This document shows positions 1-56,179 of a stretch of 64,000 bases of DNA, piece by piece (the first letter of the stretch is position 1; every line of letters begins with the position of its first letter). Made by a program: the position numbers and the translations under genes. Source of the stretch: Candidatus Auribacterota bacterium (GTDB lineage Bacteria; Auribacterota; Ancaeobacteria; Ancaeobacterales; Ancaeobacteraceae); contig JAKLEM010000002.1 in the NCBI GenBank assembly GCA_022711655.1, forward strand, positions 1,098 through 65,097, in the 5' to 3' direction. Below the pieces are notes generated by a model that saw only the letters and a program-made list of their open reading frames with translations, did no database searches and was not told where the DNA came from.

Positions 1-587
1 ACGCCCGAACCGGACACATTCAAGGCCGAACCGCTATTGAGCGTGCCGTTAACCGCCAGCGTACCTGCGCTAACATTCATCCCGCTGCTCATATAGGTCG
101 TCCCGGTACCGCCGATGCTTAAATTGCCGTACGAGGTGACGCTCCCCCACATATTAAGCGTGCCATCGTTCTGTATCGTCTGAGAGCCGCCACTGAACGT
201 CACGGAAGAATTGATCGTGTTGCTGGAGCCGTAGCTATTGTACAGGGCGTCATAGTTCTGCAGGGTGAAGTCTGGCATATTCAAACTTGCGTTGCCGCCG
301 TTGAAATAAATGCTCCCGAAATAGGCCCCGCCGGATCCCCAGACATTATTATTTTCGTTGAAATACAGGTAATCGGAGGATCCAGGAATCGAGAACCCTC
401 CCGAATCCCAGTTCGGCGCGACATCCCACGGCCCTTCGCCGGAATTGAGCGGCGTCGGCGCGATCCACGATTGGGAATCCTCATCCCAATAGGCATCGTA
501 GTCATACCCGCCGGTAAAATCGGCCGCGCTGGCCGCAACGCACATCAGTACCAGACTACAGCAGGCTAATGAGACAAGCGTTTTCAT
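1..587 (-). CDS. Secreted beta-strand-repeat protein, N-terminal fragment (gene runs off the left edge of the window)
   Basis: Absent from the ORF track because there is no stop codon in the window. Minus-strand ATG at 587..585 follows an AAGGGGAA RBS. My translation is MKTLVSLACCSLVLMCVAASAADFTGGYDYDAYWDEDSQSW..., a signal peptide. It continues into Gly/Ser/Asn/Thr-rich repeats (..GTLAVNGTLNSGSALNVSGSG) like those of the giant neighbour. Confidence 0.7.
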   Translation of the reverse strand, partial: MKTLVSLACCSLVLMCVAASAADFTGGYDYDAYWDEDSQSWIAPTPLNSGEGPWDVAPNWDSGGFSIPGSSDYLYFNENNNVWGSGGAYFGSIYFNGGNASLNMPDFTLQNYDALYNSYGSSNTINSSVTFSGGSQTIQNDGTLNMWGSVTSYGNLSIGGTGTTYMSSGMNVSAGTLAVNGTLNSGSALNVSGSG

Positions 588-610: not shown

Positions 611-644
611 AAAAAAACCCCGATCATCGAAAGGATGGCCGGGG
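611..644 (-). terminator. Intrinsic terminator (expression platform of riboswitch copy 1)
   Basis: RNA CCCCGGCCAUCCUUUCGAUGAUCGGGG followed by UUUUUUU. It lies about 25 nt upstream of the start codon at 587. Confidence 0.75.
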
Positions 645-915
645 TCTCAACACCGCGCACAACTACGTGGTGCGCTCACGGCAACTGGCTGCCATCCTCG
701 TACTGCGTTCTGCGTCCCTCGTACTGCGGTTTACACGCTGTACGCAGCACGCTCTACGCTGTACGAGCGAAGGCCCTCTAGCTTTGCAACCCGGCGAATC
801 ATCAGATTCGCGGAGCAGTACCCGCAAGCCGGCGAATCGTATGATTCGCGGACCAACCCCCGTATGGGGACATGGGTACAGTCCCATCCTTTCAGATGGT
901 TTGCCCTTAACTCAA
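611..915 (-). promoter_or_regulatory. c-di-GMP-I (GEMM-I)-like riboswitch leader, copy 1, with a 93-nt insertion at 788..880
   Basis: Minus-strand RNA reads UUAAGGGCAAACCAUCUGAAAGGAUGGGAC-[93 nt]-GCAAAGCUAGAGGGCC...GGAUGGCAGCCAGUUGCCGUGAGCGCAC. It has the GEMM-I core GCAAACC-stem-GAAA-stem-GGGAC, then GCAAAGC, then a 3' segment like GGUAGC..GUUACCG of Vibrio Vc2. About 90% identical by eye to copy 2 over roughly 170 nt. An intrinsic terminator follows. Confidence 0.65.
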
Positions 916-986
916 TTCTTTTGCTCTTCTCCTGTTTTACACTCCTTAAAGATACATACCCTCCTTTTTCCGTCTTCAACTTCTTT

Positions 987-1014
987 TTTATATCTAAGTA
1001 TCGCGTTTTTTCAA
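987..1014 (-). promoter_or_regulatory. sigma70-type promoter for leader copy 1
   Basis: Minus strand TTGAAA (1014..1009), 16-nt spacer, TATAAA (992..987), in an AT-rich island just after the stop of the giant gene. Confidence 0.5.
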
Positions 1015-1035: not shown

Positions 1036-4000
1036 TTATTTCTTCGCGGTGCGGAGTTTCCGCCTCAGGCCGAACCCGATCAGCGGCAGGAGCAGCAGCA
1101 GCGTCGACGGCTCGGGAACCTCCCCGCCGCTTTCCTGCTCGAAGCCAACTCCCTGGAACGCCCCCGTGGACGGGTCGTAATTGCCCCACGCCACCTGGCC
1201 GCCGCCACTGATCGTCGGGTACATCTCGTCGCCCAGTTCCGTCGAGACCGGCGTCAAGATGCCCGTATCCAACGAGTACTCATAGATATCCCAGTCGTCC
1301 AACCGCTGGAACGCGACCAGCGATCCCGTCGTATCCAGCACCGGATACATGTCGCTGTAGTATTTGCCCGCGCCGTCGTCCGCACCGATCAGCTCAGTCA
1401 GGTTCAAGATCGTCTCGGGATCTGCCGACGACCAATAGAAGAGGTTCCATACTTCGTTATCAACGTTCCACCCCTGCCACGCGACGTAATAGCCGCCCGC
1501 TTCGTCGTAGGCCAGCCACGGGCACGCGCCCTCAAGGTTGTCGCCGTAGTTGATCTCTACCTCGATATCGGCCCACCCGATATCCGAGTTATCCCAATCG
1601 CCCGTCGAGAGATTGAACATCTTAAGCAGCGACTTCGTCCCGTTCTCCCCGTAATACTCCAGCACGACCTTGTCTCCGGCCACCGACGGATGACGGTTCG
1701 CCGAGCCGGCGGCGAAATTGGTCCACGTTGATTCACTGGGCTTCTTGTAGAACAGTCCTGCCGCCCCCTCCACCACCATCGTCCCGTTGTATATGGCACA
1801 GCCGCCATCGTACGCCGGCATCGCGCCGTCAAAGACCCGGACACTGCCCTCAGCGCTGGTCCACAGATAGTAGCCGTCGGACTTCCGGTACAGCACCTCG
1901 CCGTTCGACACCGCCGGATGGAACGCAACGCCGGCTTCATTCTCAATAGGAACAGCGGATCCCGGATCGCCGAAGTCGGCTGCGTATTTCAGCGTATTGT
2001 CGTCGACATCGATGAAGGCGCCACCGAACCCGCCTACTTGCTGATCGGCAGCTGCTACCACAGGACGCTCAAACAGCTCCGGCGAACCAACGGGCGGGAA
2101 CGGCGGCAGGTCGTAGCGGAAGACGACGCCCAGCTCATCCTGTCCCGGCCCGCCGTTGCCTGTCGTTCCATACGCGTAGTTGCCTACCAGTGTAATCGCG
2201 CCAGACGGCCCATACCCGCTAGACCGATTGAAGCTGTAAATCAGCTCATATCCCGTTCCATCGGTATTGATCCTGAACATCGCGCCGCTCTCATTTTCGC
2301 CGCCTGCATAGGTAAGCCCGTAGAGCATCCCATCGGGCCCCAACGTCAGCCTGCCATATGGCTGTGCGCCTTCGGGGTATCTACCGTTATCCGGGTCATA
2401 CTGGAAAGCATATATCCGGTCGAAAGCGGGGTTGTCGGGATCGCTCAGATCGAGCCGGTATATGGTCCCTGTCCCTCCGTTAAACCAGTCGGATGACGTC
2501 ATCCCGTAAAACATGCCATCGTTAGCCTTCACCAGGCCGCCATAAGGATAGCCGCCATCGGTATTCTGATCGAAATCCCACAGCTTCGTATAGGCGTTCC
2601 CATTGGTCGTATCGATCCTGAAGATCGTCCCGCCGTAGGTGCCGGTCGAATTGCCGTAATATGTCGTTCCGTACAACTTTCCAGCATCGTACAACAACTG
2701 GCCGTACGGATACGCACCATCGGTAAATGACGCGTCAAATGTGTGCAACGGTGTATACGTTTCTGTCGCGGGATCAAAGCTGAACACCGTACCGTTACCC
2801 GTGTTGCTGTCCTGATCTATCCCGCCATTATAGGCCACGCCGTACAGGATTCCACCCGCGCCAGCGGTCAATTGCGTATAGGGATTGGCGCCTTCACTGC
2901 CGGAGTAATTGAACGGCGAATAGGTCATCATCGCGCCCGTTGCGGGATCAAGCTTGAAGATCGCGCCGTTACCATTCGCTCCTCCGTACGCTGTCGTCCC
3001 ATACAGCACCGCGTTCACATCGTCATAGACCATAGACCCATATTGCGGGCTGCTGCCTTCCCCATTATTCTGATCGAGCTGATACACGATCATGAAGGCG
3101 TCATTAGCCGTCGTGTCGACCTTGAATATGCCGCCGCTATAGGTCTGATTATCGCTTGAATAGGTACCGTACAGGACACCGTTCACGTTCGTCAGGTCCG
3201 AACATGAATAACCCGCTCCGTTATCCTTATCGTAAGAAAAGTCATTGACGATGTGGTAGTTCGGGTCGGGCGGCAGGCCGTACGTCAATAGGAGATCGGT
3301 GCCCGACTCGGACCGGCTGAGCGACAGCTTGGACGGGTTGGCATCGTAGAACCAGCTTGATGCGTCCAACTCGATGGTATCCGTTATATTCTCGGGCATA
3401 CCAGCCGAAGCCGTCGCGATCGTCCATGTATAGTAACCCGAGGGATCGAATACAGCAGGAGTACCCGAGCCACCCTCTCCCTCCTGCGAAAAACTGCTCA
3501 TAAGCTGCGCCCCGCCGCCGCCGCCCGAAGACACTAATTTCAAGGTGAACTTATCGTCCGTGATGTTAACATTCAGCGCCCCATCGATATTGATAAAGCT
3601 ATACCCGTCTCCGGCGTTGCCGCCGACATCGCTGACCCTCCACACAAAGCTGCCGCCGCTGTCCCAGACCTGGTCCTTGGTGTTCGTCTGGCACGGGGCC
3701 ATATCCCAGGTCCACCAGTAGCCGTATTTCTGTATATATTTCATCGTCTGCGGATCGATCGAACCGTTCCTCTTTATCTCGACCGAGCCGAACATCCCCG
3801 ACCCGCCTATGATACCCCCATTCTCGACCGTTGTCGCCGAAGAGGAGATATCCCCGTCGACGGTGAGGCGCCCGTTGTCGGTTACGTTCGTGGGGCCGGT
3901 GTAGGAGCACGTGCTTTTAACGGTGACATCGCCGGTGATAGGATTGCCCCACTCATCGGTGTAACCGGTTACGGTCACCGATGCGGCAGTGCTGCGCTCT

Positions 4001-7000
4001 CCCAATTCGGCATTGACCGTCCCGCTGCGGAGCTGGTAATCGTCGGCTTTCACCTTCCCGCCGCCCGCGCTGTCGCTGATCTGGCCGCCCATCAGCGTAA
4101 CGGTGCTCGCGCTTTGCTGGTGCCCGGCTATATCCAGCGTCCCGGCATTGACAGTCACCGCGCCGCCGTCAGAAAGGGCATTATTGTTGCCCAGCGCAAC
4201 CGTCCCAGCGCCATTTATCACAGTCCCGCCGGTATATTGCGGCGTACCGTTCAACGTCATCGTCGTCTGGTCTATGACCGATGTGACCACTGCCCCTGTC
4301 CCGCTGATCGAGTTGACGTCGATCGATTCCACGTCGGCGGTATTGGACAGAACGAGGACTGCGTTGTTCTGTATATTGCCCTGTACGCTCGGAGTATACA
4401 TGACCAGCGTGCCTTCGCTGACCGTCGTGCCGCCGGAGTAGGTGTTCGTGCCGGACAGGGTCACGGTGCCATCGGTCGTCTTGACAAGCTCTCCACCGGC
4501 AAGCGATACGCTAGCACTGCCACACTGGAAATCGAACAGATCCGCCTCAATTGTGCCCGCTCCAGTGATATTTCCCGGCTGAACCCAGGTCCCTCCCCAC
4601 GAATAGGTACCGGAGATCTGCTGCAACGAGACCTCATTCGCCTCGAGAGAACCTCCTTGGTCAATATTCAGGGTGCCGCCGTTGACGACAACATGATTAA
4701 CAGTATCCGAATGATCCACCATATTTATCGTGGCGTTAATTGTCACCGTGCCGATATCAGGCAATACGTTATCTGCGCCATAGAGCAATATCCCCTCGTT
4801 GACCATCGTGCCGCCCTCGTAGGAATTCTCGTTCGAGAGGGTGAGCGTCCCGGCGGTGCTCTTCGTCAGCGCGGCGGCGCCGCTGAGCTTTGCGGCGATC
4901 GTGCCGCCATAGGCATTTATGACATTATTCACCGTAAGCGTGCCTGTTCCCAACACCTCGGCCTGCCCGTTAAGACTGCCGTAGGATCCCTTAGGAGTTC
5001 CGCCGCCGACATCCAGTTCGTTGACAGTCTGGTCAAAGGACGAAATATCGAGAGCACCGTGGAATGCCTCTTGTTCGTGCCATATATAATATGGAGGCTG
5101 ATCCAGGTACTCAGGGCCCCAATTGGTATAACCTTCCACAGAAACAACCCCCTCGGAAGGAAGGGCATTCGCCGCACCGCATACCAGCGTGCCTTCGTGC
5201 AGCAGCAGCGTCCCGGTCCCGGAGATCTTGCCGCTGAACGTCGAGACCCCGTCTCTCTTTGATAACGTCAGAGTGCCGGCTCCCATCAGCACCTCGCCTT
5301 CTCCGGACAGTGCGACAAATGTTTGATCGTCACCATTCATATCCAGCACACCCTCGGAGCCAACGGTCATCATGGAGGAGACTCCCAGAGCGTTCGTCCC
5401 GGCAGTCACCAGCGTCCCGCCATTCACCGCGATGCTGCCTGTATAATTGCTTGAGCCGGTCAACGTCATTGTGCCATTACCCGCCTTGATCAGATATGCC
5501 TTCGTCTCGTTATCCGTGTACGGGTGGTACTCGTTTATCTGTCCTGAAAAAACCGTGTCTGTGCCATCTGCGCCAACGGTAAGCTGGTAGGAGCACAGAT
5601 AGCTCCCTCCTAAGTAAAGATCGCCAGCGCCCGCGAGAGATCCGATCGTGTCGCTCAGATCTAATTCATATGTAGAATGATTGCCGGCAGACGCCCACAT
5701 CTGCGTACCCGCCTCCAACACGACCGCCGAGGCATCGCTCATGACATCCGATAAGAACGGAGACGCATACAATGCCCCCTGCGTGACATGCGTTTCGCCT
5801 TCATAGCTGTTCGAACCGGATAACGTAAGACTGCCCGCCCCCGTTTTAATAAGCGCGCCGCTGCCGCCCATCGCGCCCGCATATGTGCCGGACGCAGACA
5901 TGTCGAACATAACGGCCGCATTATTCGTGATCGCGCCCTGTATCCCGCTGGCATTCCCCTTCAGCGTCCCATCGTTCACCGTCGTCCCGCCGCTGTACGA
6001 ATTGCCGCCGGCGAGTGTCAGGATACCAACGCCGTTCTTGATCAGCGAGCCGGCGTCGCCGATAGCACCATTGATGGTGGTCGCACCGTCACCCGATACT
6101 GTCAGTACTTTCCCTTCAGTGTCGACAGTACCATTGACCGTCAGGGACCCGGCGCTGTTGAAGTTTTCCCAGAGCGAATCGTTGCCGAGGATAATCGGCA
6201 CGTTGATGACGTCTGCCGATGCCGACTGCCGCGTGATCCCCGTATTGATCGTCAGGCTCTGACTGCCGTTCACCGAGAAACCGCTGGTGTTATCGAAGAT
6301 CATGTTATTTACGATGGCCGGCTGAGTATCGTTCAGGGAGACCGTCCCGCCGCTTGCGAATTTGACGTTCTTTCCTTCGCCGGGAGCGTTGCCGCCCTGC
6401 CAGTTCGATCCCGACCACCAATTCGTGTTTGTCCCGCCGTCGCCGCTCCATATGTAGACCGGCGTCGTATCCGGGTTGAACTTGAGGACAACGTCATTAC
6501 CCAGCGTATCCAGCGAGAAGGTACCGCCATTGAGAGGGTTGGCGAAATTGCTGTAATTCAGCGTGAACTTGTCGGCTGAGAAGCTCCCCAGGCCGTTGGA
6601 GGCGCTCAGGATCGTCCATGTATGCGTTGTCGTATTGACAAAATCGTGCACCAGCCCTGCCGTGTTATCCTCTTTCAGCGAGGTGATGTCGATCATGAAC
6701 CGGCTCGACGGCGTGCTGGAAATCGTCAGGTTGGCGGTGGTCATCAGGTCCCATTCAGTTCCCGCAGTGCCGACAACGCCATTGACCTCCCAGAGATAAT
6801 GGCCGCCGCTCGCCAGCGTCAGGTCGGTCATCGCGAGCGTTCCCGGGCTGGTCCCTGGTGACACGGTACCCCCGTCATTCACGACCACGCCTGCAACTGT
6901 GCCCGCACCCGCCAATGTCGTCCCGCTGTTCGTCGTAAAGGTCGTCAGGTTGCCGTTGCCGCTCACGATCAGCTTGCCCTCGTTGATATCGACGCCGCCC

Positions 7001-9399
7001 GCAACCGTGTTGGAACCCGACATCGTCAGCGTACGTGCTCCGTCCTTGACCACCTTGCCGGATCCGGAAATGCTCCCCGTAAACGCGCTGTCAAGCGCCC
7101 ACTGATTGAAATTCATGACAGCATTGTTCTGGAACGCCCCCCCCAGGTCCCATGCATTTAATGACAATGTTCCACCCGTTATGATCGTTCCTCCAGTGTG
7201 GCCCAACGTGCTGTAACTTAAGTTCAATGTGCCGTCTCCCACTTTCTCCAGGCTCCCGCCGGCACCATAAATGTATCCGAGAAGATTGCCGCTCCCGACA
7301 GTAAGGCGGCCACTGCCGAGCAGGATCTGGCAAGAATTTGCACCCGTCAAATCGGCGACTGTTTGGTTGTGGCCGTCCAGGTCTAAAACAAAATAGCGGT
7401 TACTCCCCCCCGCAATTGACGTTCCGGCTGGGAGAACATCGTTCGCACCAAGACGGAGCGTTCCCCAGTCCATCGTCGTTGCGCCATTGAATGTGCAGGG
7501 GCTCGATATCGTTACCGTGCTTGGCATGCCGCCCGAGCCGATGTGAATGCCCGCGTTACCCGCAAGTTCAACCGCAACAGTCCCGTTGCGAAGTGCGAAT
7601 TCGGCCGCCGTGGTCATCAGCTTCCCACTGCCCATGATCGTCCCTTCAGTAAGCGTCACCGCGCCGACAGTTTCATTGTTGTTGCCGATATCAAGCGTGC
7701 CGCCGTTCTGGATAGTCAATCCGTAGTAATCCGGCAACGTATTAGCTGCTGCCAACACGAGCTTCCCCCCGGAAACAACTGTACCGCCATAGTTGTTGCC
7801 CTGGCCGGTGCGGATGATCGTCCCGGGGCCCTCCGTGATGAACTTTCCTGTCCCGTCGATAGCACCGCCCAACGTCAGGTTCGTACCCGCCGCGGCTTTG
7901 ATCGTTGCGGTGGTAGTATTAATTGTGATCGGCGCGTTGAATGTGTTGTCCCCGACAAGGTTCTCCATACCGTTCGACAGCGTAACCCGGTTGCCGTCGA
8001 TCAGATAGCCGCCGTCATTTAATGTGATCTTCCCGAACGACGAACCTGCCGTATAATTGTTGGTGTTCGTTTTCTGAGCGGCAGCGCCAAACAAGATCGC
8101 ATCATTCGTTCCCGGCGCCCAATCCCAGTTATTTCCGTTCGTCCAGGTGCCGTCGCCGCTTGCCAGGCCGCTCCAAATGCACGGACCCAGGCTGAGCCGC
8201 ACCTTGAAGATCGTCCCGAGGTTGCCGTCGCCACCAGCGCTAGTCATGCCGTAACCAGTGTTACCCGAAACAACAAGGTTGCCCCACGGGTCCTTTCCGT
8301 CGTTCGCCCCGCCGGCGAATTTGTGCAGGATGGTATAGCCGCTGCCGTCCGTTCCTACTGAGAAAATGGTGCCGTTACCTTCACTGCCGTCCCCATAAAC
8401 GCCGATACCGCCGTCGCTCGTCATGCCGTAAAGCGTGTTCCCGGACAGCGTCAAACTACCTCTCGGGATCGCCCCATCGTTAGCTGTGCCGACAAATGAA
8501 TGCAGCAACGTCACCGCGCCGCCCGTTTCGCTGACCTTGAATACCACGCCGCGGCCGTCGCCGTCGTCGAGGGTGCTGCCACCGTGTGAGGTCATGCCGT
8601 AGAGGACCCCGTCTGCGGCGGTCACGTCACTATAGTATGGATACGATCCGTCGGCCGTACCGCCGGCAAAATTATGGATCACCGAATACTGCGACCCGCT
8701 AACGTCGGTCTTGAAGATCGTTCCCATGTCACCGACGCCGCCATTGCCGCCCGTTGTCGTCATACCGTAAAGGTTGCTACCCGATACCGTCAGACTCCCG
8801 ACCGGCGCACTGCCGTCGCTTGGGGCACCGGTAAAGTAATGCAGTATTGTGGTCGGGCCACCGCTCGTACTAACCTTGAAGATTGTTCCCGGTTTATAAT
8901 TATCACCCGCATCCCACCCTCCTTCGGTCATTCCGTAGAGATCGCTACCGACCAAAACCAGGCTGCCGTTAGGGCTTACACCATCACCGGGCGCACCGGT
9001 GAACGTGTGCAACGCCGTAAATGCATTACCGTTAGCCGTGTCGATTTTAAAGACATTACCGCCGCCTCTATACGTCATGCCGTAAATATTCGAGCCATCA
9101 ACCAGTAGCGTCCCTCCCCAGGGATTTCCCGATGCGCTGCCGCTAAAATTGTGCAGGATCTCGACAGGGCCTCCGTTGACGCTCATCCTGAATACAGTCC
9201 CCTGATCCGAGGTTCCGCCACTGTACGTCATACCGTAAAGATAATTATTTGAAAGGGTTAACGAACCATTCGGGCTACTCCCGTCGCTTGTCCCTCCAGC
9301 AAATTCGTGGAGCAGCTGATCGGTCGCCCATGAGACGTTCGTCACGCAACACATCGCTGATACGAGAACTGCCCACATAAGCCTCATTGCGTTTCTCAT
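1036..9399 (-). CDS. Giant (2787 aa) secreted PEP-CTERM protein with two GloVer-type repeat blocks and a long run of autotransporter-associated beta-strand repeats
   Basis: One uninterrupted 8364-nt ORF with a signal peptide (MRLMWAVLVSAMCCVTNVSWA). Seven ..LYGMTxxGG..GT(I/V)FK.. repeats lie at aa ~30-400. GxGTLTLSGxNxYxGGTxVxxGTL-type repeats fill aa ~420-1850. A second block of seven LYG(T/M/V/L)T repeats lies at nt ~2100-3240. The C-terminal sorting signal is GGEVPEPSTLLLLLPLIGFGLRRKLR. Confidence 0.9.
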   Translation of the reverse strand: MRNAMRLMWAVLVSAMCCVTNVSWATDQLLHEFAGGTSDGSSPNGSLTLSNNYLYGMTYSGGTSDQGTVFRMSVNGGPVEILHNFSGSASGNPWGGTLLVDGSNIYGMTYRGGGNVFKIDTANGNAFTALHTFTGAPGDGVSPNGSLVLVGSDLYGMTEGGWDAGDNYKPGTIFKVSTSGGPTTILHYFTGAPSDGSAPVGSLTVSGSNLYGMTTTGGNGGVGDMGTIFKTDVSGSQYSVIHNFAGGTADGSYPYYSDVTAADGVLYGMTSHGGSTLDDGDGRGVVFKVSETGGAVTLLHSFVGTANDGAIPRGSLTLSGNTLYGMTSDGGIGVYGDGSEGNGTIFSVGTDGSGYTILHKFAGGANDGKDPWGNLVVSGNTGYGMTSAGGDGNLGTIFKVRLSLGPCIWSGLASGDGTWTNGNNWDWAPGTNDAILFGAAAQKTNTNNYTAGSSFGKITLNDGGYLIDGNRVTLSNGMENLVGDNTFNAPITINTTTATIKAAAGTNLTLGGAIDGTGKFITEGPGTIIRTGQGNNYGGTVVSGGKLVLAAANTLPDYYGLTIQNGGTLDIGNNNETVGAVTLTEGTIMGSGKLMTTAAEFALRNGTVAVELAGNAGIHIGSGGMPSTVTISSPCTFNGATTMDWGTLRLGANDVLPAGTSIAGGSNRYFVLDLDGHNQTVADLTGANSCQILLGSGRLTVGSGNLLGYIYGAGGSLEKVGDGTLNLSYSTLGHTGGTIITGGTLSLNAWDLGGAFQNNAVMNFNQWALDSAFTGSISGSGKVVKDGARTLTMSGSNTVAGGVDINEGKLIVSGNGNLTTFTTNSGTTLAGAGTVAGVVVNDGGTVSPGTSPGTLAMTDLTLASGGHYLWEVNGVVGTAGTEWDLMTTANLTISSTPSSRFMIDITSLKEDNTAGLVHDFVNTTTHTWTILSASNGLGSFSADKFTLNYSNFANPLNGGTFSLDTLGNDVVLKFNPDTTPVYIWSGDGGTNTNWWSGSNWQGGNAPGEGKNVKFASGGTVSLNDTQPAIVNNMIFDNTSGFSVNGSQSLTINTGITRQSASADVINVPIILGNDSLWENFNSAGSLTVNGTVDTEGKVLTVSGDGATTINGAIGDAGSLIKNGVGILTLAGGNSYSGGTTVNDGTLKGNASGIQGAITNNAAVMFDMSASGTYAGAMGGSGALIKTGAGSLTLSGSNSYEGETHVTQGALYASPFLSDVMSDASAVVLEAGTQMWASAGNHSTYELDLSDTIGSLAGAGDLYLGGSYLCSYQLTVGADGTDTVFSGQINEYHPYTDNETKAYLIKAGNGTMTLTGSSNYTGSIAVNGGTLVTAGTNALGVSSMMTVGSEGVLDMNGDDQTFVALSGEGEVLMGAGTLTLSKRDGVSTFSGKISGTGTLLLHEGTLVCGAANALPSEGVVSVEGYTNWGPEYLDQPPYYIWHEQEAFHGALDISSFDQTVNELDVGGGTPKGSYGSLNGQAEVLGTGTLTVNNVINAYGGTIAAKLSGAAALTKSTAGTLTLSNENSYEGGTMVNEGILLYGADNVLPDIGTVTINATINMVDHSDTVNHVVVNGGTLNIDQGGSLEANEVSLQQISGTYSWGGTWVQPGNITGAGTIEADLFDFQCGSASVSLAGGELVKTTDGTVTLSGTNTYSGGTTVSEGTLVMYTPSVQGNIQNNAVLVLSNTADVESIDVNSISGTGAVVTSVIDQTTMTLNGTPQYTGGTVINGAGTVALGNNNALSDGGAVTVNAGTLDIAGHQQSASTVTLMGGQISDSAGGGKVKADDYQLRSGTVNAELGERSTAASVTVTGYTDEWGNPITGDVTVKSTCSYTGPTNVTDNGRLTVDGDISSSATTVENGGIIGGSGMFGSVEIKRNGSIDPQTMKYIQKYGYWWTWDMAPCQTNTKDQVWDSGGSFVWRVSDVGGNAGDGYSFINIDGALNVNITDDKFTLKLVSSGGGGGAQLMSSFSQEGEGGSGTPAVFDPSGYYTWTIATASAGMPENITDTIELDASSWFYDANPSKLSLSRSESGTDLLLTYGLPPDPNYHIVNDFSYDKDNGAGYSCSDLTNVNGVLYGTYSSDNQTYSGGIFKVDTTANDAFMIVYQLDQNNGEGSSPQYGSMVYDDVNAVLYGTTAYGGANGNGAIFKLDPATGAMMTYSPFNYSGSEGANPYTQLTAGAGGILYGVAYNGGIDQDSNTGNGTVFSFDPATETYTPLHTFDASFTDGAYPYGQLLYDAGKLYGTTYYGNSTGTYGGTIFRIDTTNGNAYTKLWDFDQNTDGGYPYGGLVKANDGMFYGMTSSDWFNGGTGTIYRLDLSDPDNPAFDRIYAFQYDPDNGRYPEGAQPYGRLTLGPDGMLYGLTYAGGENESGAMFRINTDGTGYELIYSFNRSSGYGPSGAITLVGNYAYGTTGNGGPGQDELGVVFRYDLPPFPPVGSPELFERPVVAAADQQVGGFGGAFIDVDDNTLKYAADFGDPGSAVPIENEAGVAFHPAVSNGEVLYRKSDGYYLWTSAEGSVRVFDGAMPAYDGGCAIYNGTMVVEGAAGLFYKKPSESTWTNFAAGSANRHPSVAGDKVVLEYYGENGTKSLLKMFNLSTGDWDNSDIGWADIEVEINYGDNLEGACPWLAYDEAGGYYVAWQGWNVDNEVWNLFYWSSADPETILNLTELIGADDGAGKYYSDMYPVLDTTGSLVAFQRLDDWDIYEYSLDTGILTPVSTELGDEMYPTISGGGQVAWGNYDPSTGAFQGVGFEQESGGEVPEPSTLLLLLPLIGFGLRRKLRTAKK

Positions 9400-9490: not shown

Positions 9491-9700
9491 TAAAAAACCC
9501 CGATCATCGAAAGGATGGTCGGGGTCTCAACACCGCGCACATCACGTCGTGCGCTCACGGCAACTGGCTGCCATCCTCGTACTGCGTTCTGCGTCCCTCG
9601 TACTGCGGTTTATACGCTGTACGCAGTACGCTATACGCTGTACGGGCTAAGGCCCTTCAGTTTTGCGTCCCATCCTTTCAGATGGTTTGCACTTAACTTA
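9491..9700 (-). promoter_or_regulatory. c-di-GMP-I (GEMM-I)-like riboswitch leader, copy 2 (no insertion)
   Basis: Minus-strand RNA UUAAGUGCAAACCAUCUGAAAGGAUGGGACGCAAAACUGAAGGGCCUUAGCC...GAGGAUGGCAGCCAGUUGCCGUGAGCGCAC. Compare Vc2 GGCAAACCAUUCGAAAGAGUGGGACGCAAAGCC...GGUAGCGGGGUUACCG. It has a GAAA tetraloop hairpin (CCAUCU/GGAUGG). An internal loop CCUUAG/GAUGG resembles the GAAA receptor CCUAAG/UAUGG. A terminator follows. Confidence 0.8.
9492..9524 (-). terminator. Intrinsic terminator (expression platform of riboswitch copy 2)
   Basis: RNA CCCCGACCAUCCUUUCGAUGAUCGGGG followed by UUUUUU, about 90 nt upstream of the giant gene start at 9399. Confidence 0.75.
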
Positions 9701-9785
9701 TCTCTTCTGCATTCCTCCTCTTTTCCTTTTCCTCCGCTGAACAACCAATAGCAAGAATACACATTTCTTTTTTACTTCAAGATTT

Positions 9786-38793: not shown

Positions 38794-39909
38794 TTAATCC
38801 CTTTTTCTCCGAATCAGCCCGGCGGCCGCAGCCAGCGGCAGCAACAGCAGCAACGTTGACGGCTCGGGAACCTCTCCGCCGCCCCCTTCTCCCTCCTGCC
38901 CGAAAGTGCTGCCGACCGTGCCCACGCCGTTGTTCGCAAGCCACGCGACCTGCCCGCCCCAGACGGAAGGGTTGGTCTCGTTCATGTCATCGGTAAATGT
39001 GATCTGCCGGACGTTGGTCCCGTCGTAATTCCCCATCCATATGTTGTAGTCGTCGTACTGCTGCCATGCGATCGTATCCCCGTTGATGTCGGGATATTCG
39101 TCGTCGAGACCGACAGCGCTGCCGGCGTAACGCTGAAGCCCGTTTGTGCTGTCCCATGTAAATATGTCATAATCGCTATTATACCCCAACTCGGGATCAT
39201 ATAGCTGGCCCGCCATGACGACTTTCCCGTCATAGACCTTCGGCGCATAATAAAAACTGCCATACGGATCGCCCTGGGCGATGCATAGAGCCGTGTCATA
39301 GCCCATAGTCGTATCCCAATAATAAATGCTGTAACTCAATTGATCATAGAAAGCGGCCTGCACGACCGTTCCGCCATCGCTCCAGATACTAGGCCCCGAA
39401 CTTAATTGCCACGAATAGTTCGTATCGACGACTTCGTGCACGGTGTTCCCGTCATAATATTTAAAACTGGGATCCCAATCGCTCCACGCTACGACACCAT
39501 TCGAAGCGCTGACTCCCCGGATCTGATTCCAAGATCCGGATCCGGGCACCTGCTGAGTCTGCTCTGTCGAGCTGTCCCAGTAATACACGCTGTTGGTCCC
39601 GGAATCAGCATCGGGGGACACATAATAGACCTTGCCCCCGTAATTAGCTGTCTGACTAGCCCCCTGGAGTGCATTTGTCGCTATCGGGGTGGTGGTTATC
39701 TGTCGGCTGCCCGGGTCATAGACCGAATACTGTATGCTGGAGTACCAGACATATGTCTGCTCGTCTTGCCACGTGATGTTATCATTATAACTGAAGGTGT
39801 TCTCATACACAGAAACGCCTGTCGGGTCTGGGTTCTTATACGCATACACCCCTGACTCTCCGGCCAACAGGACTATCACACATATCACGCCGATAACCGT
39901 TGTCTTCAT
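38794..39909 (-). CDS. Secreted PEP-CTERM protein (371 aa), beta-propeller-like
   Basis: Signal peptide MKTTVIGVICVIVLLAGESGVYA. The C-terminus GGGGEVPEPSTLLLLLPLAAAAGLIRRKRD is nearly identical at nucleotide level to the giant protein's tail. The preceding ..DDYNIWMGNYDGT..NPSVWGGQVAWLANN module is shared with the giant protein's C-terminal region. Confidence 0.85.
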   Translation of the reverse strand: MKTTVIGVICVIVLLAGESGVYAYKNPDPTGVSVYENTFSYNDNITWQDEQTYVWYSSIQYSVYDPGSRQITTTPIATNALQGASQTANYGGKVYYVSPDADSGTNSVYYWDSSTEQTQQVPGSGSWNQIRGVSASNGVVAWSDWDPSFKYYDGNTVHEVVDTNYSWQLSSGPSIWSDGGTVVQAAFYDQLSYSIYYWDTTMGYDTALCIAQGDPYGSFYYAPKVYDGKVVMAGQLYDPELGYNSDYDIFTWDSTNGLQRYAGSAVGLDDEYPDINGDTIAWQQYDDYNIWMGNYDGTNVRQITFTDDMNETNPSVWGGQVAWLANNGVGTVGSTFGQEGEGGGGEVPEPSTLLLLLPLAAAAGLIRRKRD

Positions 39910-39970: not shown

Positions 39971-40230
39971 TAAAAAACCCAACTTCTTTTCGGCTGTCTC
40001 GATCCGAAATGAGGTTGGGACGTGATAGTCAGTTTCAATCGCCACGCGAGCGGCACACACCCTCGCTCGCACGATGATATTTACGTGGATCGCTCCACGG
40101 CAACTGGCTGCCTTTCCGCGAAACTCGCTGCCGGATAAGGCCCTCTAGCTTTGCAGGCCGGCGTATCATGGATCCGCTGACCTGTTCCCCTCGGGAACGT
40201 CCCACCCTTTCGGATGGTTTGCCCTTCTTT
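39971..40230 (-). promoter_or_regulatory. c-di-GMP-I (GEMM-I)-like riboswitch leader, copy 3, with a 44-nt insertion at 40155..40198
   Basis: RNA AGAAGGGCAAACCAUCCGAAAGGGUGGGAC-[44 nt]-GCAAAGCUAGAGGGCCUUAUCCGG...GGAAAGGCAGCCAGUUGCCGUGGAGCG, followed by a terminator. Confidence 0.65.
39972..40019 (-). terminator. Intrinsic terminator (expression platform of riboswitch copy 3)
   Basis: RNA CCCAACCUCAUUUCGGAUCGAGACAGCCGAAAAGAAGUUGGG followed by UUUUUU. Confidence 0.65.
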
Positions 40231-40293
40231 AACTTTTCCTACGCTCCTCCTTTATAAAAGTACACATTTCCTTTCTTTCCAACTAACAGTTTG

Positions 40294-53837: not shown

Positions 53838-55940
53838 TTACGTCCGTCTCTTGAGCAGTAACCGGATGCGCGCCAGGAGCCGTTCGGTGTCGAACGGCTT
53901 CGTCACGTAGTCGTCGGCGCCGAGGTCGAGCCCCTTCACCTCGCTCGCCTTGTCCTTGACCGCCGTAAGCATCATGATCGGTATGACCGCCGTCTCGATG
54001 CGCGAGCGCAGCTGCCTGACCGCTTCGAACCCGTCCATCTCCGGCATCATCACGTCGAGTATCGCGAGGTCAGGCCGCTCGCGGACGGCCATCTCGACAC
54101 CTTCGGCGCCGTTGGCGGCGCGGATCGTGTCGTAGCCGGCGTCCTCGAGAGTGATGCCGAGTATCCTCGCCAGGTCCGGCTCGTCCTCGACGATGAGGAT
54201 GAGCGGCTTCTCGCGTTTCCGGGGCAGCGCCTTCTCATCCTCGCTCTCGCTCACGTCGGTCCTCTTGGCCACCTCTTCGAGGGTGGTGATCCCCTGCTTG
54301 AGCTTGATAAACGCCGAGTCGGCAAGGAGCGTCATCCCGCCGCGCAACGCTTCCTTGAGGATCACGTCCTCGCCCGCCTTCTCGGCTATCAGCGTGCGGA
54401 TCTTTTTCGTTATCTCGAGCATCTCGAAAACGCCCGTCCTCCCGAGATACCCGGAAAAGTTGCACCGGGCGCACCCTTTGCCCTTCATGAACCTGGTGAT
54501 GCGGTGCCGCTCGAGCGACCCCAGGTATTTCTCGACGAGCTCGGGGGCCGGCTGGTATTCGTCGCGGCAGAACTCGCAGTTCACCCGGACGAGGCGCTGC
54601 GCGATGACCAGCGTCAGCGACGAGCCGATGAGGTACGGCTCGAGGCCGAGGTTCAGCAGGCGCGTCACGGAGGCGACGGAACTGTTGGTATGGATCGTCG
54701 ACAGCACCAGGTGCCCCGTGAGCGAGGCCTTGAACGAGATCTCGGCCGTCTCGAGGTCGCGGATCTCGCCGACCAGGATGACGTTCGGGTCCTGCCGGAG
54801 GATGCTCCGCAAGCCGTTGGCGAAGGTGACATCCTTTACCGGGTTCACCTGGATCTGGTTGACGCCGTCCATCAGGTATTCGATAGGGTCCTCGATCGTG
54901 ATGATGTTCTTGGTCGGGCACTTGATGGCGTTCAGCGTGGCGTACAGCGTCGACGTCTTCCCGGATCCCGTGGGGCCGGACACCAGGATGATCCCCTGCG
55001 GCCGCGCGATCGATTTTCTGAAAAGCGTCATCTCCTTCTCGGAGAAACCGAGCGCATCCAGGTCGGTGTGCGCGACGGTGGCGTCGAGGATGCGGAGCAC
55101 CGCCTTTTCGCCGAAGTGCGTCGGTACCATCGACACGCGCATGTCGATATAGCGGCCGCTCAGGTAGATCTTGGTGCGGCCGTCCTGCGGCTTCCTCGTC
55201 TCGGCGAGGTCCAGGCTGGCCATCACCTTGATGCACGAGATGACGAACGAGTGGAGCTTGGAGGGGATCTCCATCACTTCGCGCAGGTCGCCGTCGATGC
55301 GGTACCGGATCTTGGTCTTGTCCTTCCCCGCCTCGATGTGGATGTCGCTCGCGCGCGCCTTGATGGCGTCGGTGAGAAAAAGGGTGACGAGCTTCATCAC
55401 CGGCCCCTGCTTGGTGTCCTTGAGCGCGCTCTCCTGCTTTTCCTTGCTCTCGCGGAGCACGTCGATGTCTGCCGACGCGACGATGTGAGAGAAGAGGTCG
55501 TACAGGCTTTCGTCCGACTGGTAGACGCTCTCGATAAGCTCGGCCAGGTTGCTCTTCGGGCACATCACCGGCATGACGTCCATGTTGGTCAGGAGCTTGA
55601 CGTCGTCGACGGCGATGACGTCGAGCGGATTGCTCATGGCGAGCAGGAGGTGCTCGCCTTCCTTGCGCACCGGGAGGACGCCGTATTTTTTCGCGAGCTC
55701 GTAGGGGACCAGCACCGACACCTCCGAGTCGATGTCGTCCTTCTTGAAGCTGACGACCGGCATGCCGTAGGCGCGGGACATGATCTCGAGCATCTCTTTC
55801 TCGGCGATAAAGCCCATCTCGACAAGGATATCCTGCAGGGGACGCTTCGCCCCCCGCTGCCGTCCCTTGGCTTCGACGAGGTTCTCTTTCGTGAGCAGGT
55901 TCTCGCTCACCAGCATGTCTTCGAGGATGTTCTTCGGCAT
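53838..55940 (-). CDS. PilB/GspE-family secretion ATPase with MshEN-like N-domain and C-terminal receiver domain
   Basis: Trimmed to MPKNILEDMLVSENLL.. (ATG 55940, GGGAG RBS). Walker A GPTGSGKTS, VGEIRD, tetracysteine CEFC..CARC. The C-terminus LILIVEDEPD..LDVMMPEMDG.. is a receiver domain. Confidence 0.85.
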   Translation of the reverse strand: MPKNILEDMLVSENLLTKENLVEAKGRQRGAKRPLQDILVEMGFIAEKEMLEIMSRAYGMPVVSFKKDDIDSEVSVLVPYELAKKYGVLPVRKEGEHLLLAMSNPLDVIAVDDVKLLTNMDVMPVMCPKSNLAELIESVYQSDESLYDLFSHIVASADIDVLRESKEKQESALKDTKQGPVMKLVTLFLTDAIKARASDIHIEAGKDKTKIRYRIDGDLREVMEIPSKLHSFVISCIKVMASLDLAETRKPQDGRTKIYLSGRYIDMRVSMVPTHFGEKAVLRILDATVAHTDLDALGFSEKEMTLFRKSIARPQGIILVSGPTGSGKTSTLYATLNAIKCPTKNIITIEDPIEYLMDGVNQIQVNPVKDVTFANGLRSILRQDPNVILVGEIRDLETAEISFKASLTGHLVLSTIHTNSSVASVTRLLNLGLEPYLIGSSLTLVIAQRLVRVNCEFCRDEYQPAPELVEKYLGSLERHRITRFMKGKGCARCNFSGYLGRTGVFEMLEITKKIRTLIAEKAGEDVILKEALRGGMTLLADSAFIKLKQGITTLEEVAKRTDVSESEDEKALPRKREKPLILIVEDEPDLARILGITLEDAGYDTIRAANGAEGVEMAVRERPDLAILDVMMPEMDGFEAVRQLRSRIETAVIPIMMLTAVKDKASEVKGLDLGADDYVTKPFDTERLLARIRLLLKRRT

Positions 55941-56179
55941 ATGACCGTCCGCTCCCGTAAATCCGCCCTGATTGTAACACAACCGCCGCTCGCTGTCGCA
56001 GGGAAATTTGCGCCCCGAAATGGCGGATAACAGTCCGTCTGCGGCGTTGCAGGCCACCGCTCTCTTGTGCGGCGTACTTCCCAGTACGCCTCCGCGGTCG
56101 CTGGCCTGCGCCTTGCAGCCGAACTGTTCTTCGCCATTTCGTATTTCAAACAGGTTCTATATGAATTATTATCTTATTC

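Follow-up and report, generated by a model that had tools for sequence, protein, structure and literature searches.

Organization of the leader

The window analyzed here is a stretch of 64,000 nucleotides (nt) from contig JAKLEM010000002.1 of a Candidatus Auribacterota bacterium, and the element in question occupies positions ~611–1014. This region reads as a complete c-di-GMP-I (GEMM-I) riboswitch for cyclic di-GMP (c-di-GMP), consisting of an aptamer, a terminator and then a secreted-protein gene. Its aptamer, referred to as copy 1, carries 93 additional nt that fold into two helical domains, HA and HB. The riboswitch assignment and the proposal that HA and HB build an architectural four-way junction form a joint reading, which we consider probable rather than secure. 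All riboswitch coordinates refer to the minus strand of the window. Residue numbers are those of the Vibrio cholerae Vc2 aptamer, and they were moved to copy 1 through the Rfam alignment of copy 2, a near-identical aptamer in the window. From 5′ to 3′ in the RNA, the leader contains the following features.

~985..1014, minus strand: promoter-like TTGAAA-16 nt-TATAAA, recognized by eye only and weak as evidence
~679..908, minus strand: GEMM-I aptamer, with Vc2 numbering via the Rfam consensus alignment
903..908, minus strand: 5′ junction strand AAGGGC, numbered by alignment to the Rfam consensus as A17-A18, G19, G20 and G21-C22
881..902, minus strand: P1b, with the internal-loop AAA (902–900) and a 6-bp stem CCAUCU/GGAUGG (899–894/889–884), from sequence and fold
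818..879, minus strand: inserted helix domain HA, closed by the 6-bp stem GUACCC/GGGUAC (879–874/823–818), from the minimum free energy (MFE) fold
789..816, minus strand: inserted helix HB, GCUC-C-GCGAAUC-UGAU-GAUUCGC-C-GGGU, from the MFE fold
786..861, minus strand: 38-nt tandem duplication (786–823/824–861, 79% identical; family D1), from the repeat search
781..787, minus strand: GCAAAGC, comprising G45-C46 (the 3′ half of lower P1b), the A47–A49 linker and the start of P2, from the sequence
679..780, minus strand: P2, with tetraloop-receptor-like CCUUCG.../...GAUGG and a ~62-nt apical extension with internal repeats, from the Rfam alignment of copy 2
666..680, minus strand: small hairpin CGUG-AGCGCAC-CACG, beginning at C93 right after C92, from the sequence
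611..646, minus strand: terminator-like hairpin GACCCCGGCCAUC-CUUUC-GAUGAUCGGGGU followed by U7 (RNAfold, −16.7 kcal/mol)
3..587, minus strand: regulated gene with its ATG at 587–585 and a signal-peptide-like N-terminus, leaving the window, from open reading frame (ORF) reading

Conserved core and position of the insertion

P1b of copy 1 has the form GC-AAA-CCAUCU-GAAA-GGAUGG-GAC...GC (904–881 and 787–786), in which the 3′ side of the internal loop is split by the 93-nt insert. Residues G21-C22 form the 5′ half of its 2-bp lower helix, a GAAA tetraloop (893–890) caps the upper stem, and G42-A43-C44 are located at 883–881. The upper stem covaries at four of its six pairs (59 sequences). The AAA linker between P1 and P2, including A47, is present in GCAAAGC and, according to the original GEMM description, hardly varies in this class (PMC1950547). 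The 3′ junction strand GGCAGCCAGUUGCCG lies at 693–679, and copy 1 keeps G20 (the ligand partner, at 905), A47–A49 (785–783), C44 (881), G83 (689) and C92 (681). In P2, GGGCCUUCG.../...GAUGGC resembles, by eye, the 11-nt receptor CCUAAG/UAUGG, and the Rfam alignment places copy 2 in the receptor columns. In Vc2, the ligand is bound by pairing of its two guanines with G20 and C92 and by a contact with the backbone of A47 (PMC5888326). The C44-G83 pair and the tetraloop–receptor contact join P1b to P2, and the G83C substitution abolishes folding (PMC11705072). Since every ligand-contacting and tertiary-contact nucleotide is canonical, we infer from the sequence that the copy 1 RNA still senses c-di-GMP.

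The mapped core positions place the insertion between the flipped-out C44 and G45, in the conserved P1 internal loop, i.e., on the 3′ side of the P1b loop and two nt before A47. In the 2009 Vc2 crystal structures, A47 reportedly intercalates between the guanines of the ligand. The original GEMM description presents P1 as two stems with a highly conserved 3-nt internal loop between them, and it mentions no optional hairpins (PMC1950547).

Structure of the insert

Copy 1 runs from GCAAACCAUCUGAAAGGAUGGGAC, which ends at 881, through the 93 nt (880..788) into GCAAAGC, whereas the junction of copy 2 reads GGGAC-GCAAAAC with nothing between. An earlier note on this DNA had placed 93 extra nt (788..880) exactly between GGGAC and GCAAAGC, and both the sequence and the comparison with copy 2 bear this out. 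The same note gave the identity of the two copies outside the insert as ~90%; the measured values are 89.4% over the 188-nt 3′ part (P2 and terminator) and 84% over the 50-nt 5′ part. It had also described the insert as non-random and listed its stems. Indeed, all of these stems are recovered when the insert is folded on its own (MFE −46.7 kcal/mol, z = −4.18), a stability that none of 200 shuffled sequences equaled, and the folding z-score of the whole copy 1 aptamer is −5.0.

HA encloses a hairpin CCCC-AUAC-GGGG (869–858) and a second, HB-like hairpin GGUCCGCGAAUC-AUAC-GAUUCGCCGGCU (854–827), and single-U linkers are found at all three joints of the module in copy 1. The 24-nt direct repeat that had been noticed at 790..813 and 828..851 is real but was understated, being the core of the 38-nt tandem duplication; within the two cores, the stems are identical and the loops differ. 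This duplication placed the second HB-like hairpin and the small CCCC/GGGG hairpin within HA and so accounts for the branched HA of copy 1. The closed domain followed by a second hairpin is likewise present as the earlier note described it, but it is not a novelty of copy 1: the 93-nt insert belongs to a conserved type of two-helix (HA+HB) add-on, of which it is an enlarged form with a branched HA. The outer HB-type stems differ compensatorily between copies (GGUC/GGCC, GGUC/GGCU and GCUC/GGGU).

Two other identities were considered for the insert and rejected. A dispersed palindromic repeat, similar to repetitive extragenic palindromes or miniature inverted-repeat transposable elements, does not fit, as no HB core motif lies outside riboswitch inserts, either in the window or in 124 kb of DNA from the same organism (a fraction of the genome). 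A tandem two-aptamer GEMM does not fit either, because the insert contains no GCAAAC, GCAAAGC or GCC core motifs and the window holds only three aptamer cores.

Recurrence in paralogs and other lineages

The earlier note had implied that copy 1 was unique. This did not hold: the module also occurs in copy 3 of the window, which the note had overlooked, and, overall, in ~40 aptamers from Omnitrophota, Planctomycetia and metagenome-assembled genomes (MAGs) of the Planctomycetes–Verrucomicrobia–Chlamydiae (PVC) group, in addition to no fewer than five same-organism paralogs. The other two copies of the window and the loci on contigs L115–L132, which come from samples with the copy 3 locus (ERZ795055, JGI 3300009771), are listed below.

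9556..9701, minus strand: copy 2, insert-free paralog (GGGAC-GCAAAAC), from Rfam with relaxed filters
40096..40233, minus strand: copy 3, GEMM-I aptamer in which the same junction carries an HA+HB insert of 44 nt, from Rfam and sequence reading
L115: 91-nt insert with the branched architecture of copy 1
L128: 45-nt two-hairpin insert
L130b: 47-nt two-hairpin insert
L130a: 91-nt insert, long HA then HB
L132: 87-nt insert, long HA then HB
L121: no insert (GGGAC-GU-AAAGC)
L122: no insert (GGGAC-UGU-AAAGC)
L125 (6349–6662, minus strand): canonical at C44/G45 (GGGAC-U-GCAAAGC), with ~75 nt of hairpins after GCAAAGCU, the P2 5′ strand

In copy 3, GGGAC is followed by 44 nt and then by GCAAAGC. The insert consists of GUUCCC-GAG-GGGAAC and AGGUCAGCGGAUC-CAU-GAUACGCCGGCCU, and its second hairpin is recognizably akin to both GCGAAUC hairpins of copy 1. 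Copy 3 carries the canonical G20, A47 and C92 and lies upstream of a gene for a 371-aa PEP-CTERM protein (38794–39909). Copy 2 lies upstream of a gene for a 2787-aa PEP-CTERM/PATR protein (1036–9399). At the equivalent of Vc2 G20, copy 2 has a U (window 9691; AAGUGCAAACC), where copies 1 and 3 have a G; its A47 and C92 are canonical, and this U20/A47/C92 combination may reflect an altered ligand preference.

The same-organism loci belong to a metagenome scan for the P1b of this lineage followed by a non-canonical dinucleotide, which gave 20 loci. In L121 (7668–7813) and L122 (533–677), GU takes the place of GC at positions 45–46, corresponding to a G21-U46 wobble. The hairpins in P2 of L125 represent another expansion site within the same lineage. 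A scan of a genome collection for P1b, 20–50 nt and GCAAARC gave 109 loci; ~70 were ordinary aptamers with a chance second GCAAARC and 34 were true insertions, the canonical matches and at least one spurious match (L049, Pseudomonas) being filtered by hand. Copy 3 fits this pattern yet was not among the loci, which indicates that the species itself is missing from the collection. The 34 insert-bearing aptamers belong to Omnitrophota, to uncultured Planctomycetia/Planctomycetales, to PVC-group MAGs or to entries without a taxon label, whereas the Firmicutes and Proteobacteria matches were all canonical, with no insert among them. The four-way-junction form of GEMM-I seems to be limited to Omnitrophota and the PVC group.

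The same-organism paralogs also bear on the history of copy 1. Its P1b and insert (769–909) are 90.8% identical to L115 2830–2968 over 141 nt (BLAST), with differences mainly in loops and linkers, whereas its P2 and terminator (612–785) are 97.1% identical to the insert-free L121 7604–7777 over 174 nt (BLAST). Copy 1 is therefore a mosaic of two paralog types that points to recombination or gene conversion among riboswitch paralogs, in which the whole P1b-plus-insert half appears to have been exchanged.

The apex of P2 shows a second large expansion in the same aptamers, namely a conserved ~62-nt extension with repeated GUACAGCG/CGCAGUACGAGG units (697–770 in copy 1 and ~9575–9640 in copy 2, as well as in L121, L122 and L130; families D2, D3 and I1). 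Short tandem repeats also occur in the P2 apices of several Omnitrophota aptamers (L027/L041, ~2420–2470; L072; L084), namely ATAGCTC in four units and TTGACCA in three, paired with GCTGATAG-type repeats on the opposite strand.

To date, standard annotation captures little of this group. RF01051 at its gathering score (35 bits) has no match in the window. With relaxed filters, copy 2 scores 58.2 bits and copy 3 scores 32.4 bits, which is under the gathering score, and copy 1 is not found even at E ≤ 10. Copy 2 goes unreported in gathering mode with default filters despite its score, presumably because of the 62-nt P2 insertion. The insert-bearing members give sub-gathering or fragment matches to RF01051, only L128 passing with 38.1 bits. 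L121 and L122 match the c-di-GMP-I-GGC model (RF03167) best, above RF01051, with 49.2 and 40.9 bits, respectively, short of its gathering score of 59. Rfam 15 has no model that captures the insert-bearing form. A search of the full-text literature found no description of the insertion, although most subscription journals fall outside its coverage and an earlier mention is possible.

The failure of the Rfam model to match copy 1, even at E ≤ 10, is what would be expected if the insertion had inactivated the aptamer and left a relic. However, the miss arises from two long insertions (93 nt in P1b and ~62 nt in P2) and not from core mutations, as copy 2 reaches 58 bits; the core nucleotides, terminator and downstream ORF of copy 1 are all intact, and the branched insert is kept in L115 with changes concentrated in loops and linkers. 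We find a decayed aptamer hardly credible.

Fold and covariation of the two helices

The class set comprises 47 insert-bearing aptamers with inserts of 25–93 nt. Among these inserts, 45 fold by MFE into exactly two top-level domains that abut each other and are flush with both ends, compared with 5.9% of dinucleotide-preserving shuffles, and the mean folding z-score is −4.35. The two exceptions have obvious two-hairpin alternative folds, and a single-hairpin insert was found in none of the 47. No linker bases are present ahead of HA in 45/47 cases, at the HA–HB joint in 41/47 or behind HB in 43/47, and HA itself ranges from 12 to 62 nt.

The basal stems show clear covariation. Each basal HA/HB pair position contains 4–6 pair types, and all eight pairs, including the four of HB, change on both sides. 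A gapless trimmed alignment of the basal stems has a covariation score of 0.913, compared with 0.182 for shuffled partners (0/500 as high). The covariance model R1, built from this alignment, found 60 aptamers across the combined set of the window and 53 loci, and these were then aligned. Once the real sequences are aligned with R1, pairing reaches 99.4% in HA and 98.8% in HB, a near-complete pairing that is partly by construction because the stems were located by per-sequence folding; the shuffle comparison of two-domain folds is the fair control for HA/HB pairing. All eight pairs are compensatory in this alignment, with a covariation score of 0.580 versus 0.128 (0/500 shuffles), and slid-partner controls give at most 0.12. 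The earlier note had proposed a search for homologs in which the inserted stems are conserved and covary; such homologs were found, and the covariation extends to all eight basal pairs. The refuting outcome that the note had named, homologs lacking conservation or covariation of these stems, therefore did not occur.

At the level of sequence, the class is far less uniform. Across it, HA and HB show no conserved nucleotide in any loop, bulge or junction. About 40% of HA stems have the form YCCC.../...GGGR, repeating the 3′ end of P1b, and some HA loops are GNRA tetraloops. These observations bear on the composite aptamer suggested in the earlier note and, more broadly, on an insert that binds a second ligand, serves as a docking site for a protein or shifts specificity. 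The insert lies two nt from A47 and adjoins C44, so that it could affect the pocket (PMC5888326, PMC11705072), and the GNRA tetraloops of some HA domains also speak for this idea. Nevertheless, what the helices have in common is their structure, with no loop or bulge sequence conserved over a length range of 25–93 nt, and copy 1 keeps the canonical G20, A47 and C92. As no insert sequence is conserved, neither a second ligand nor a specific protein site is supported, and we regard this explanation as very improbable.

Proposed architectural role of HA and HB

In most members of the class, HA directly follows GGGAC, HB follows HA and G45 follows HB. Therefore, P1b-lower, P1b-upper, HA and HB make a four-way junction at the secondary-structure level, as the earlier note had foreseen. 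From the sequence data, we judge it reasonably likely that HA and HB are a lineage-typical structured expansion between C44 and G45, serving as an architectural element of a c-di-GMP riboswitch with a four-way-junction P1b. In such an arrangement, HA and HB would stack coaxially beside the P1b stack in a Holliday-like manner, and they might buttress or pre-organise the junction together with the lower P1b helix, which has only 2 bp. That the helices always come in pairs suits a requirement for P1b-lower and P1b-upper to remain stacked.

The scaffold is otherwise that of RF01051 and Vc2, with the same 2-bp and 6-bp P1b helices, AAA/GAC internal loop, GAAA tetraloop and AAA linker (PMC1950547, PMC11705072, PMC5888326). 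The receptor-like P2 motif and the residues G20, A47, C92, C44 and G83 are also the same, as are the location in the 5′ leader of secreted-protein, pilin and adhesin genes and the terminator-type platform. Two differences stand out. Copy 1 adds two helices between C44 and G45, which turn the P1b internal loop into a four-way junction, and P1a, the 5′/3′ closing helix, is weak or absent; in the window organism, a local hairpin follows C92-C93 instead. The GEMM-I variants of Rfam clan CL00126, i.e., cyclic GMP-AMP (cGAMP; GEMM-Ib, A20), c-di-GMP-I-GGC and -UAU, belong to the same class and share the same scaffold. However, they are defined by ligand-contact substitutions, whereas the contacts of copies 1 and 3 are canonical and the change is an added domain. 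A likeness is also found in P3a of the thiamine pyrophosphate (TPP) riboswitch and in the peripheral extension of the cobalamin riboswitch, which are lineage-restricted helices of variable length, conserved in structure and not in sequence, around a conserved core. In contrast to these, HA and HB lie within the ligand-junction strand, two nt from A47 and beside C44-G83, and always form an abutting pair.

Several points weigh against this reading. Close paralogs without the insert (copy 2, L121 and L122) keep nearly the same aptamer; therefore, the insert is not required for the fold, and it may add little. In Vc2, the C44-G45 backbone is near the P1b/P2 interface, where two extra helices might disturb the C44-G83 pair. 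The 47 sequences are phylogenetically related and not independent. Furthermore, the scans demanded exact matches to the P1b flanks GCAAACC....GAAA....GGGAC, with inserts restricted to 20–50 nt in the genome scan; consequently, the frequency and taxonomic range given above are lower bounds and possibly biased.

The first of these points also speaks for a tolerated, functionless expansion, in which the C44/G45 site is permissive, hairpins arising by slippage or duplication accrue neutrally, and selection acts only against disturbance of the aptamer. The near-identical aptamers without an insert, the wide variation of the inserts in sequence and length (25–93 nt), and the enlargement of copy 1 by a plain 38-nt tandem duplication are all compatible with this. 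The lineage accommodates big hairpins at other sites as well, one being the apex of P2 and another the 5′ strand of P2 in L125, and sparing the aptamer would by itself favor compact, self-contained hairpins. However, neutral expansion does not predict two domains in 47 of 47 inserts and never one or three, nor zero-length linkers at all three joints in ~90% of cases, nor that the module would persist, with compensatory changes, in MAGs labelled Omnitrophota, Planctomycetia and PVC group. We consider it unlikely, though far from negligible.

The architectural reading could be carried further. HA/HB-bearing aptamers might be a functionally distinct, undescribed GEMM-I subclass limited to Omnitrophota and the PVC group, in which the coaxial helices replace the weak or absent P1a and confer affinity, kinetics or specificity different from those of insert-free paralogs in the same cell; this extension is possible but, in our estimate, doubtful. 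The pairing potential between the 5′ and 3′ flanks averages −2.8 kcal/mol in insert-bearing aptamers versus −4.3 kcal/mol in the others, and values of −5 or lower occur in 15% versus 40%, a comparison that is confounded by taxonomy and relies on a crude regular expression for C92. It gives only a hint that the insert compensates for a missing P1a helix. All same-organism paralogs have a local hairpin right after C92-C93, which reads CGUGG-N6-CCACG in copy 3 (40080–40096), L115, L128, L130 and L132, and CGUG-N7-CACG in copies 1 and 2, with a compensatory change to CGCGG/CCGCG in L122. In copy 1, a rival hairpin GCGCAC/GUGCGC (675–655) is also possible. Nothing in the 5′ flank could pair to make a P1a closing helix, so the hairpin after C92 may replace P1a or compete with it.

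Expression platform and regulated genes

The simple terminator scan did not call the hairpin at 611–646, because its stem has an interior mismatch. Similarly, the TTGAAA/TATAAA candidate was not called by the consensus promoter scan, whose rule demands a T at position 6 of the −10 hexamer. A purine-rich stretch AAAAAAGGGG lies between the terminator and the ATG of the downstream gene, and a Pfam search of the 195 aa available from this gene gave no match.

The 5′ strand of the terminator, CCAUCCUUUC (638–629), is perfectly complementary to the loop and 3′ strand of P1b, GAAAGGAUGG (893–884), ~245 nt upstream, the two forming a 10-nt inverted repeat (I4). The CCAUCCUUUC motif is kept in copy 2, L121, L122, L125, L128 and L132, in the last of these even though the 3′ partner in the terminator has changed. 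This complementarity suggests a candidate long-range antiterminator, proposed here only tentatively, in which P1b, and not P1a or P2, would supply the switching strand of an OFF switch. In this scheme, P1b locked by the ligand would let the terminator form and turn the gene OFF; without ligand, the terminator 5′ strand would pair with the loop and 3′ strand of P1b as an antiterminator. Two considerations count against this part of the proposal. In the calculated energies, P1b (−6.3 kcal/mol) and the terminator (−16.7 kcal/mol) outweigh the antiterminator duplex (−17.5 kcal/mol), so the OFF logic would be weak, and the P1b–terminator complementarity could be inherited among paralogs and not selected.

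Given that the insert lies directly 3′ of the P1b strand complementary to the terminator, HA and HB might instead be a regulatory or kinetic element, i.e., a co-transcriptional spacer or pause before P2, or a partner in alternative pairings. The frequent HA form GUCCC...GGGAC, which repeats the terminal GGGAC of P1b (~40% YCCC/GGGR), is in line with alternative pairing, and the coexistence of insert-bearing and insert-free paralogs in one genome would be expected if the insert tuned the response. Nonetheless, HA and HB of copy 1 have no conserved complementarity to downstream segments, the sole long-range repeat being that between P1b and the terminator, and the expression platforms of insert-bearing members vary widely while the HA/HB geometry is constant. 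Such an element seems distinctly improbable to us.

The genes downstream of these riboswitches encode signal-peptide, PEP-CTERM, PATR, FG-GAP, type IV pilin-like and RlpA-like proteins and match the classic GEMM regulon. Elsewhere in the window, the ORF at 53838–56057 (minus strand) specifies a secretion ATPase of the T2SSE type that begins with an MshEN domain, a c-di-GMP-binding domain family, and has a receiver domain at its C-terminus. The window also encodes HydF and a HydG-like radical S-adenosylmethionine protein, which points to an anaerobe with an [FeFe] hydrogenase. This HydF shares only ~70% identity with proteins named Lentisphaerota or Omnitrophota and thus gives no more than a rough placement of the uncultured organism.

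Implications

Optional helices are common among riboswitch classes, but C44/G45 is a surprising expansion site, given how thoroughly this fold has been studied. The P1b internal loop beside A47 and C44 has been regarded as highly conserved, and a recurrent, covarying insertion exactly there shows the tolerance of this junction and one way to convert a three-helix aptamer into a multi-helix junction. One organism contains paralogs with and without the insert whose remaining sequence is 89–97% identical, which gives a natural matched pair. If the insert-bearing form were indeed a functionally distinct subclass, one genome would run two tiers of c-di-GMP riboswitches. Because none of the three riboswitches in the window passes a standard Rfam threshold scan, the c-di-GMP regulons of Omnitrophota, Planctomycetota and related uncultured lineages are probably under-annotated, and R1 recovers such riboswitches.

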